Virus record (IMG/VR): IMGVR_UViG_3300045988_163663
DNA length: 64,000 bases
Direction: 5' to 3' (one strand)
DNA from: a virus
The notes beneath the pieces were generated by a model. The model did no database searches, had not been told where the DNA came from, and was given only the letters and a program-made list of their open reading frames with translations. The translations under genes and the position numbers were made by a program. Each line of letters opens with the position of its first letter. Position 1 is the stretch's first letter. This document shows positions 42,494 through 43,786 of the stretch, piece by piece.

Positions 42494-43786
42494 ATGGCTT
42501 TTAAAATGAGAACAACACGACCAGAAGCAGGTAATAAATATTATATTACAAGAGCTAATGGTGGTTATTCATATGCTATTAAAGGTAGCCCAACAGATAG
42601 CAAATGTGATGTATTGTCAAATTGTGTAGGCTATGCATATGGTCGTTTTAACGAAATTGGCAATTGGGGTTATTGTAAATATTTAAGCCCTGTTAATGCT
42701 GAACGTTTTATGGAATATAATAATACGGGTATTCCAGTCGGACAAGTGCCTAAACTTGGAGCTTGCATGGTTTGGCAAGGAGGAGCTACTAAAAAAGGTA
42801 GCGATGGTGTCGGCCACGTAGCTATTGTAGAAAAAGTAATAAGTCCTACTGAAATTATTACATCTGAAAGTGGTTGGGGCAGTAGAAATCCATTCTGGAA
42901 TGCAACACGTAAAAAGGGAAATGGCAACTGGGGTGCTGGTGCCGGTTATAAATTTCTTGGATTTATTTATAATCCAGCAGTCAAAGATGGTGATACTGTA
43001 GATAATGATCCTATGGCTGGATATGGTTACGGTAAGACTAATAGTCCATTAGTAAGTTATACTAAAATTAGTCCTAATAAGACAAGTCCTCGTAACCATG
43101 TAATTGATACTGTTACAATTCACTGTGTAGTTGGACAATGTTCTGTTGAAGCTCTTGGAGAAGTATTTGCACCAACATCGAGACAAGCTTCTTCTAATTA
43201 TGGTATTGGACCTGATGGCAGAATTGGTATGTACGTTGAAGAAAAAGATCGTTCATGGTGTTCTTCTAATGGAGCTAATGATAATAGAGCAATTACCATT
43301 GAAGTTGCCAGTGATACTTTTGCTCCATATAAAGTAACTGATGCAGCATTTAATTCTTTAATTAAATTACTTGCTGATATTTGTAAACGTAATAATATTA
43401 AATCATTAAAATGGAAGGCTGATAAAAATTTAATTGGTCATCCAGAAGAATAGAATATGACAGTTCATAGATGGTTTGCTAATAAATCTTGCCCTGGTGA
43501 TTATTTATATAATAAACACTATGAAATTGCCGAAAAAGTAAATGAATTATTAGGAGTATAGGAGGAAGATGAAGATATGACTCAAGAAAGATTTAATGAA
43601 CTTATGACTAATTATTTGACTGAACTTGCCGCGAAAGACCCTAGTGCATGGTCTGCTGATGCTCGTACTTGGGCAGAAGATAATGGCTACATTAAAGGCG
43701 ATGGTAAAGGTCATACGATGTATAAGAAATTTATGACTCGTGAAGAAATGGTTCAAGTTCTTTATCGTATTATGAATAATAAATAA
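42494..43786 (+). CDS. endolysin: CHAP peptidase plus N-acetylmuramoyl-L-alanine amidase (amidase_2), with an SLH-like C-terminal module joined through a TAG
   Basis: CHAP 'CDVLSNCVGYAYGRF..GHVAIVEKV'. Amidase_2 'TIHCVVGQCSVEA..AITIEVASD'. In-frame TAG at 43450 and at ~43558. The second is followed by 'aggagg' and ATG 43577, encoding 'RTWAEDNGYIKGDGKGHTMYKKFMTREEMVQVLYRI' (SLH-like). Confidence 0.6.

Follow-up and report, generated by a model that had tools for sequence, protein, structure and literature searches.

A TAG-recoded gut phage endolysin with a conserved internal start, predicted to supply its SLH-like wall-binding module also as a free polypeptide

The window analysed here is a 64-kb (64,000-nucleotide) stretch of IMG/VR record IMGVR_UViG_3300045988_163663, taken from a gut phage genome of about 190 kb, and it carries an endolysin gene at 42494–43786 (+ strand). 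In our best reading as a whole, to which we give a probability of about 0.72 on the basis of sequence, this gene encodes one 430-amino-acid (aa) lysin with CHAP, Amidase_2 and SLH-like modules, its in-frame TAG codons are read as Gln, and an internal start makes a free 69-aa copy of the SLH-like module. A single mRNA would yield both the full-length enzyme and the free polypeptide from 43577. The free copies would assemble into a trimer with the full-length chain's repeat, for instance two free copies with one full-length chain, and the resulting three-fold unit would bind the wall polymer of the host. The TAG at codon 356 would be only one of the NAG codons (TAG, GAG, AAG) tolerated by the internal Shine-Dalgarno (SD) sequence, and would not act as a switch.

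The gene starts with ATG at 42494, served by the SD sequence AAGGAG at 42481–42486 (duplex with the anti-SD sequence of the 16S tail, -9.0 kcal/mol), and stops with TAA at 43784–43786, which gives 430 codons with TAG as Gln. Its modules follow in the order CHAP (aa 43–126, 42620–42871; Pfam PF05257, E 3.7e-11), Amidase_2 (aa 202–336, 43097–43501; Pfam PF01510, E 1e-19, profile positions 3–131 of 131), acidic linker and one C-terminal SLH-like repeat (core at aa 385–427, 43646–43774), and with TAG read as sense the lysin matches endolysin families of PHROGs. Two in-frame TAGs, which an initial annotation of this DNA had placed one base too early (43450 and about 43558), are located at 43451–43453 (codon 320) and 43559–43561 (codon 356). 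The former falls inside the amidase, hence in the catalytic region as annotated, and the latter in the linker. Around the second TAG the bases are GTA TAG GAG GAA GAT GAA GAT ATG, where tAG GAG Gaa forms the internal AGGAGG (43560–43565) 11 nucleotides (nt) before an ATG at 43577; this ATG is codon 362 in the same frame, and this pair of signals had been recognized correctly. The polypeptide predicted from it (43577–43786, +), with the N-terminal peptide MTQERFNELMTNYLTELAAK, has no TAG inside, and its 69 residues are also the C-terminus of the full-length enzyme.

Within the window, 43560–43565 is the sole internal AGGAGG with an in-frame ATG 4–13 nt downstream. The anti-SD pairing before ATG 43577 (-10.2 kcal/mol) is the best among 271 internal in-frame ATGs; it is stronger than that of the lysin's own start and beats 87% of annotated starts, and the RNA around the internal start is weakly structured compared with shuffled controls (z = +0.75). 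Both SD and ATG sit in the linker between the end of Amidase_2 (aa 336) and the SLH-like module and not inside a domain, so that an in-frame start preceded by a ribosome-binding site (RBS) of its own separates the catalytic part from the wall-binding part. Another ATG at 43457, just after the TAG of codon 320, was considered as a restart site and rejected, since its SD pairing is weak (-1.5 kcal/mol).

Modules of this family were gathered from viral contigs, and their junctions were counted with a start-independent motif in 22 representatives at ≤75% identity. Among ten relatives of the lysin, down to about 60% identity, AGGAGGA is invariant before the first Met of the module, while the codon giving the first 'AG' is TAG, GAG or AAG and encodes Q, E or K. 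Generally, within the 24 nt before the start, GGAGG is found at a distance of 5–11 nt (20 of 22 representatives); of 39 distinct junctions, 24 have a spacing of 8 nt, 10 one of 11 nt and 3 one of 5 nt. Related endolysins thus agree in the relative position of the start. Of the 22 representatives, 18 have ATG at the junction, 3 GTG and 1 CTG, the last with an ATG three codons upstream, behind AAGGAG. At the GTG junctions Val is encoded in the fused chain, indicating that the kept element is the start codon and not methionine.

The same junction occurs in TAG-free phage genes of apparently standard code, in which the module is joined with Amidase_2, Phage_lysozyme2 plus Amidase_2, Peptidase_M15_3, Peptidase_C39_2 or CHAP. 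These loci are contiguous standard-code gene arrays with 30–54% GC, and a partial locus of 66% GC (L157) has the same junction. Testing the code of each locus by open reading frame (ORF) coverage (code 11 vs TAG as sense) was too noisy on 5-kb loci, notably GC-rich ones, and stop codons and gene contiguity were inspected instead. Two loci from a related phage, L117 and L118 (2501–3733), encode the module as a free-standing gene of 72 aa that has AAGGAGGA of its own. Directly downstream of this gene is a CHAP-type lysin of 337 aa, which likewise has an SLH-like repeat at its C-terminus, with Ile or Val and no start at the junction. From the above, the internal SD and start are strongly conserved, beyond chance.

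Could the full-length protein be the only product, with AGGAGG as a by-product of two Glu codons and Met362 as a structural residue? The linker is rich in Glu and Asp in all relatives, and internal-start predictors are known to give false positives, for example in 15% of portal genes (PMC9430671). However, the Glu codons overlapping GGAGG are GAG in 34 cases and GAA in 11, while the other Glu codons of the linker are GAG in 5 and GAA in 28 (Fisher P = 1.9e-7, a value that overstates independence because the lineages are related). The remainder of those genes has 84 GAG and 342 GAA, and the whole window has 1120 GAA and 128 GAG, so GAG is chosen at the SD codons, next to GAA at neighbouring Glu positions, against a roughly 9:1 preference for GAA. 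In addition, the first SD codon varies (Q, E, K, T) while the bases preserving GGAGG are kept, Met is replaced by GTG (Val), which is again a start codon, and a separate-gene version is known from L117 and L118. We consider a full-length product alone unlikely.

The SD-like sequence might also be a translational pause that aids folding of the catalytic domain and not a start, and a conserved motif of this kind exactly at a domain boundary would suit such a role. SD-induced pausing was questioned in later ribosome-profiling work. Moreover, a pause needs no start codon 5–11 nt downstream, yet ATG or GTG is conserved there, and the separate gene in L117 and L118 shows the polypeptide to be in use on its own. 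A mere pause is therefore highly improbable to us.

The C-terminal module is probably a divergent single SLH repeat, with homology to SLH seen at the family level only. The assignment of its core combines hhalign, Pfam matches of family members, PDB profile matches and a Foldseek search with a tandem member. Of the 44 family members, 20 match Pfam SLH (PF00395), the best at E 3.2e-9. By hhalign, the family profile aligns with SLH repeat 1 of Sap over 43 columns (90.9% probability, E 1.2e-6), and TREE (aa 415–418) is put on the SLH TRAE motif. T, R and E of T415-R416-E417-E418 are invariant or nearly so in the family, which corresponds to a TRAE-type ligand-binding motif. Against PDB, the four top matches of the family profile include Sap SLH chains (6BT4, 3PYW) as well as 8BZ2, each of them weak (E about 0.2). 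For an AlphaFold2 model of a natural tandem family member, the nine best Foldseek matches in PDB are SLH crystal structures (3PYW, 6CWC and others), with modest TM-scores. The module nearly always opens with an MTQE(K/Q/R)FN helix, and there is one repeat per chain instead of the three of an SLH spindle, so a trimer would need to form between chains. The 69-aa sequence by itself was uninformative against PHROGs.

A second SLH-bearing protein is encoded at 27159–28223 (+). It is 354 aa long, free of TAG, and has canonical SLH repeats (PF00395, E 9e-20), which fits a host wall carrying an SLH ligand.

Several points weigh against our preferred reading, besides the relatedness of lineages mentioned above. 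The 69-aa sequence from the window has no match to PF00395 at E≤1, so the initial claim of an SLH-like C-terminus, to be judged by hidden Markov model, holds for the family (20 of 44 members; hhalign) and fails for this sequence alone. Its monomer model has three helices with a predicted local distance difference test (pLDDT) score of 90, and fold searches with that model matched nothing. The spacing between SD and ATG in the window, 11 nt, is longer than the 8 nt of most lineages, and an acidic linker (EE) explains a GAGGAG-like sequence in part. Loci were gathered with two search patterns, one of which demanded Met at the junction, although the later tally was start-independent. Finally, the 69-aa product and any complex containing it are predictions from the nucleotide and protein sequences.

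SLH units bind pyruvylated wall polymer as three-fold assemblies, which are pseudo-trimers in Sap and SpaA and homotrimers in SlpA and LysBT1 (PMC12285257). Since SLH repeats work as three-pronged trimers, the free copies would likely assemble with the repeat of the full-length chain. Tandem and separate-gene forms of the module in the family lend such an association some indirect support. Wall-binding domains made from internal starts are known to form multimers together with the full-length chain, and activity can depend on them, with stoichiometries of 1:3 in Lys170 and LysIME-EF1, 2:2 in CTP1L and CD27L, and 1:5 in LysP7951 (PMC9430671, PMC7098653, PMC4777826). An internal start is predicted for about half of the endolysins of Gram-positive phages (PMC9430671). 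Like Lys170 and related enzymes, the window gene has an in-frame start with its own RBS between the catalytic part and the wall-binding domain, a predicted full-length chain plus a free wall-binding domain, and a constant relative start position across the family, which is a confidence criterion in PMC9430671. It differs from them in that its module is a single SLH-like repeat, two catalytic domains precede the internal start, the genome is TAG-recoded with one TAG being part of the SD, and both products are here predicted. Because the module is SLH-like, a three-fold SLH spindle may be expected instead of the reported 1:3, 2:2 or 1:5 rings.

Endolysins with a single SLH repeat were first described in 2025–2026 (PMC12285257, 10.64898/2026.09.23.753664). 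Like these enzymes, the window lysin has an amidase-type domain joined by a flexible linker to a single SLH repeat at the C-terminus, with a motif of the TRAE type (TREE in the window); LysBT1 trimerises through its own SLH repeat. Unlike them, the window lysin has an extra N-terminal CHAP domain, and its module, in this sequence below the Pfam threshold, belongs to a divergent SLH subfamily with the MTQE(K/Q/R)FN helix. An internal start is not mentioned in the papers on single-SLH endolysins (PMC12285257, 10.64898/2026.09.23.753664), and in the literature searched, no paper pairs an SLH wall-binding domain with an internal start. For a wall-binding polypeptide encoded as its own gene beside a catalytic gene, L117 and L118 can be compared with PlyC, whereas the window would make both predicted products from one gene. 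PlyC is a streptococcal phage lysin of two separately encoded subunits, and its PlyCB octamer is unrelated to SLH.

The reading of TAG as Gln is a property of the whole genome. With TAG as sense, + strand ORFs of ≥300 aa occupy 37.5 kb, compared with 14.9 kb in the standard code, and no comparable rise was found with TGA as sense. In a non-overlapping set of 67 genes, which by construction end in TAA (55) or TGA (12), there are 158 in-frame TAGs in 18,505 codons (8.5 per 1000). In-frame TAGs close to gene ends (such as 5964, 8990 and 35279) have a frequency near chance, as judged by eye. In the apparently standard-code homologues P0034, P0048 and P0051 the codon-320 column is Gln. When 11 TAGs of the window were compared with ten related loci, CAA and CAG together were the commonest replacement (12 of 30 differing aligned codons). 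For example, the PhoH-like gene has a TAG inside ISEAQNMD, where L117 and L086 have a standard Gln codon (CAA in L086); EAQN is a conserved PhoH motif. Full-length 430-aa homologues called with TAG as Q also exist in metagenomes.

The phage encodes a tRNA with anticodon CUA (amber suppressor) at 21133–21204 (+), detected by the Rfam tRNA model at 38.9 bits, with the anticodon loop CUCUAAA. Its acceptor end has a U1-C72 mismatch and G73, its D and T loops are non-canonical (lacking GG and TTCGA), and ARAGORN with default settings did not detect it. A suppressor call on the opposite strand by relaxed ARAGORN was rejected as spurious. At the corresponding position, near-identical phages have a tRNA(CUA) of canonical form. 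A scan by exact pattern for the anticodon arm reached one near-identical contig only, and the tRNA of the relatives was reached via the adjacent gene. As the two tRNA sequences are unrelated, the suppressor gene seems to have been replaced in place. In both types the 1-72 position is unpaired and base 73 is G. Both traits count among the identity features of tRNA-Gln in bacteria, and for this reason we infer that tRNA(CUA) is charged with Gln.

Under the standard code the lysin would be a decayed gene in fragments of 319, 34 and 69 aa, which is just what a standard-code ORF list gives, and some database entries are such fragments. This view conflicts with an Amidase_2 profile that runs uninterrupted across TAG320, with in-frame TAGs genome-wide, with swaps of TAG for CAG or CAA in relatives, with the tRNA(CUA), and with the PhoH-like TAG at a position of standard Gln codons in L117 and L086; its probability is practically negligible. 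Both lysin TAGs are ordinary Gln codons, and the phage, which encodes a tRNA(CUA) itself, is a case of code 15 (TAG to Gln). Code-15 gut phages, and the hypothesis that recoding regulates late or lysis genes, have already been published (10.1101/2021.08.26.457843, PMC9523058). The window resembles the published phages in many genes with in-frame TAG, a phage tRNA(CUA), TAG-free replication genes and TAGs in lysis genes. It is unlike them in that the lysin shows no preferential recoding and the TAGs in this gene are not conserved in position.

This bears on the central proposal of the initial annotation, that TAG356 is a programmed switch giving separate catalytic and SLH proteins before suppression and a fused enzyme after it, and thereby timing lysis. 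The TAG does lie in the interdomain linker right on the internal SD, occurs at exactly the same spot in at least three other lineages (L088, L092, L170), and coexists with a suppressor tRNA; replication genes lack TAG, and recoding that gates lysis has been hypothesized in print (10.1101/2021.08.26.457843). The 1922 codons of the genes for GyrB, the GyrA-like protein, ligase and RNase H include no TAG, against an expectation of 16.4 (P = 7e-8), so the pattern of early genes in standard code and later genes recoded is present. However, TAG320 is upstream and within Amidase_2. The residues His210 (43121), His325 (43466) and Cys333 (43490) are taken by us to be Zn ligands and Lys331 the catalytic Lys, by analogy with T7 lysozyme-type amidases, and H210 and C333 are invariant or nearly so among aligned lysin homologues. 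A chain of 319 aa stops before His325 and Cys333, so no intact catalytic protein is made without suppression. Of the two separate proteins proposed for that state, only the small SLH-like polypeptide is plausible; that the fused enzyme needs suppression stands, since both TAGs must be decoded in this genome.

The TAG positions also drift among relatives. At 96% aa identity to the window lysin, L008 has CAG at codon 320 and TAG at 356 alone; L015 (90%) has TAG at 320 and GAG at 356, and L009 (91%) has no TAG, with CAG at 320 and GAG at 356. TAG is found at codons 37, 187 and 384 in L086 (about 84%, with CAA at codon 320), at 37 and 215 in L089 (about 81%, with AAG at 356), at 37, 84 and 353 in L010–L012 (79%) and at 108 and 216 in L087 (about 68%). 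Some relatives thus have GAG, AAG or GTT as codon 356. All of the listed relatives have the C-terminal module fused in frame, indicating that fusion is the default architecture and TAG356 is no conserved device. Some lineages have TAGs within the C-terminal module itself, at codon 384 in L086, at codon 3 in L116, L120 and L121, and in the free gene of L117, and in the TAG-free, apparently standard-code phages the SD and start are conserved and the module is fused unconditionally. At the NAG position, TAG vs CAG is 4:0, which is not significant (P about 0.11, from codon frequencies).

The lysin contains 2 TAGs, while 3.7 are expected, and TAG makes up 25% of its Gln codons (2 of 8) compared with 25.5% genome-wide, which means usage equal to or below the genome average. 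The preferential use of the recoded stop over CAA/CAG in lysis genes, expected under the recoding-gated lysis of Borges et al., is not found for the lysin. It is an average member of the recoded gene set and not specially gated. With TAG as a general Gln codon, TAG positions that drift and a TAG-free relative, we do not retain the idea of a built-in timing switch, and regard it as quite improbable.

Another form of coupling can be formulated, in which the TAG on the internal SD (uAGGAGG) makes the proportion of the two products depend on how much suppressor tRNA is present. With little suppression, ribosomes would terminate on the SD and re-initiate 16 nt downstream, giving only the free SLH-like subunit; once the suppressor has accumulated, the full-length enzyme would appear, and the catalytic/wall-binding ratio and the amount of active enzyme would rise late in infection. 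L088, L092 and L170 independently have a TAG on the SD as well, but its recurrence is no higher than codon usage predicts and many lineages have no TAG there, and we think this coupling very unlikely.

The only lysis gene with signs of the published recoding-gated pattern, mild TAG enrichment and conserved TAGs, is the one directly downstream of the lysin. This gene (43807–44265, +) encodes 152 aa with two hydrophobic segments and is a putative holin, judged by position and hydrophobic segments; its product has no Pfam or PHROG match. It has 4 in-frame TAGs (codons 5, 93, 120 and 141), compared with 1.3 expected by codon count (Poisson P = 0.04), and they account for 4 of its 7 Gln codons. Two of them, at 43819 and 44083 (codons 5 and 93), are retained as TAG by the majority of the relatives compared, L086 (67% nt identity) among them, and are missing in L012 and L089, which form the most distant pair. 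Should lysis in this phage be timed by recoding, the holin-like gene is a better candidate than the lysin.

Internal-start endolysins, single-SLH endolysins, code 15 and its proposed link to lysis are all already known, and this lysin joins a known kind. To the two-polypeptide class, our preferred reading would add a wall-binding module widespread in phages of gut Firmicutes, a single SLH-like repeat with its own start site, and suggests a possible rationale, namely that free copies complete the three-fold SLH unit. A recombinant lysin may need the internal start or co-expression of the tail for activity, as with Lys170 and LysP7951. Standard-code gene callers split the lysin of recoded phages into 319, 34 and 69 aa (109 aa in relatives), and many such fragments in public protein databases risk being taken for small genes or regulatory read-through. 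TAGs in a lysis gene alone are no evidence of gating; the informative test is conservation of TAG positions across relatives, which points to the holin-like gene and not to the lysin.

Terminator-like hairpins are located between the PhoH-like gene and the lysin (42439–42466, +) and after the ORF at 44323–44610 (44612–44639, +). They flank the lysin, the holin-like gene and ORF95 (44323–44610), which suggests a separate lysis transcription unit. A promoter scan gave sites no more numerous than in shuffled sequence. Two human-gut contigs of 189,525 and 189,494 bp are nearly identical in sequence and have the same TAG positions, while a nucleotide search of GenBank phages gave no close relative, only short endolysin and PhoH matches at 66–72% identity.

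Some other features of the window were recorded. Gyrase B is seemingly split at 46040–51290 (+), where a GyrB gene (569 aa), a GIY-YIG endonuclease gene with 3 TAGs, a 60-aa C-terminal piece of GyrB and the GyrA-like gene follow one another; no group I intron was found in this region at the Rfam threshold. Three TAG-free, GC-richer genes in 28647–33247 and 36663–37733 (+) encode a DUF7788/DUF2828 protein, an 827-aa protein with a Major Vault Protein shoulder and repeats, and a Band_7/flotillin protein. Their Gln codons are nearly all CAG (13–28) with hardly any CAA (0–1), and they look compositionally foreign to the rest of the phage. At 38138–40299 (+), a radical-SAM-like protein (CxxxCxxC motif) is followed by a 286-aa protein full of CxxxC-type cysteine repeats; relatives of these proteins have a faint match to a radical-SAM target repeat family, and the two might form a peptide-modification pair carried by the phage.

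In the tRNA region of the phage, the anticodon loop of a tRNA-Gln(UUG)-like gene at 18494–18631 (+) is enlarged by an insertion of 66–69 nt, less than a group I intron would require; at the corresponding locus, immediately ahead of tRNA-Tyr, L174 has a tRNA-Gln(ttg) without interruption. A full-length ROOL RNA (18804–19396, +; 324 bits) and a RAGATH-33 RNA (22145–22257, +; 135 bits) lie in the same tRNA region and are conserved in L174 and L175. Just 5' of RAGATH-33, at 22061–22131 (+), there is a weak sub-threshold tmRNA/tRNA-like match with a good acceptor and T-arm and a CACCA end.

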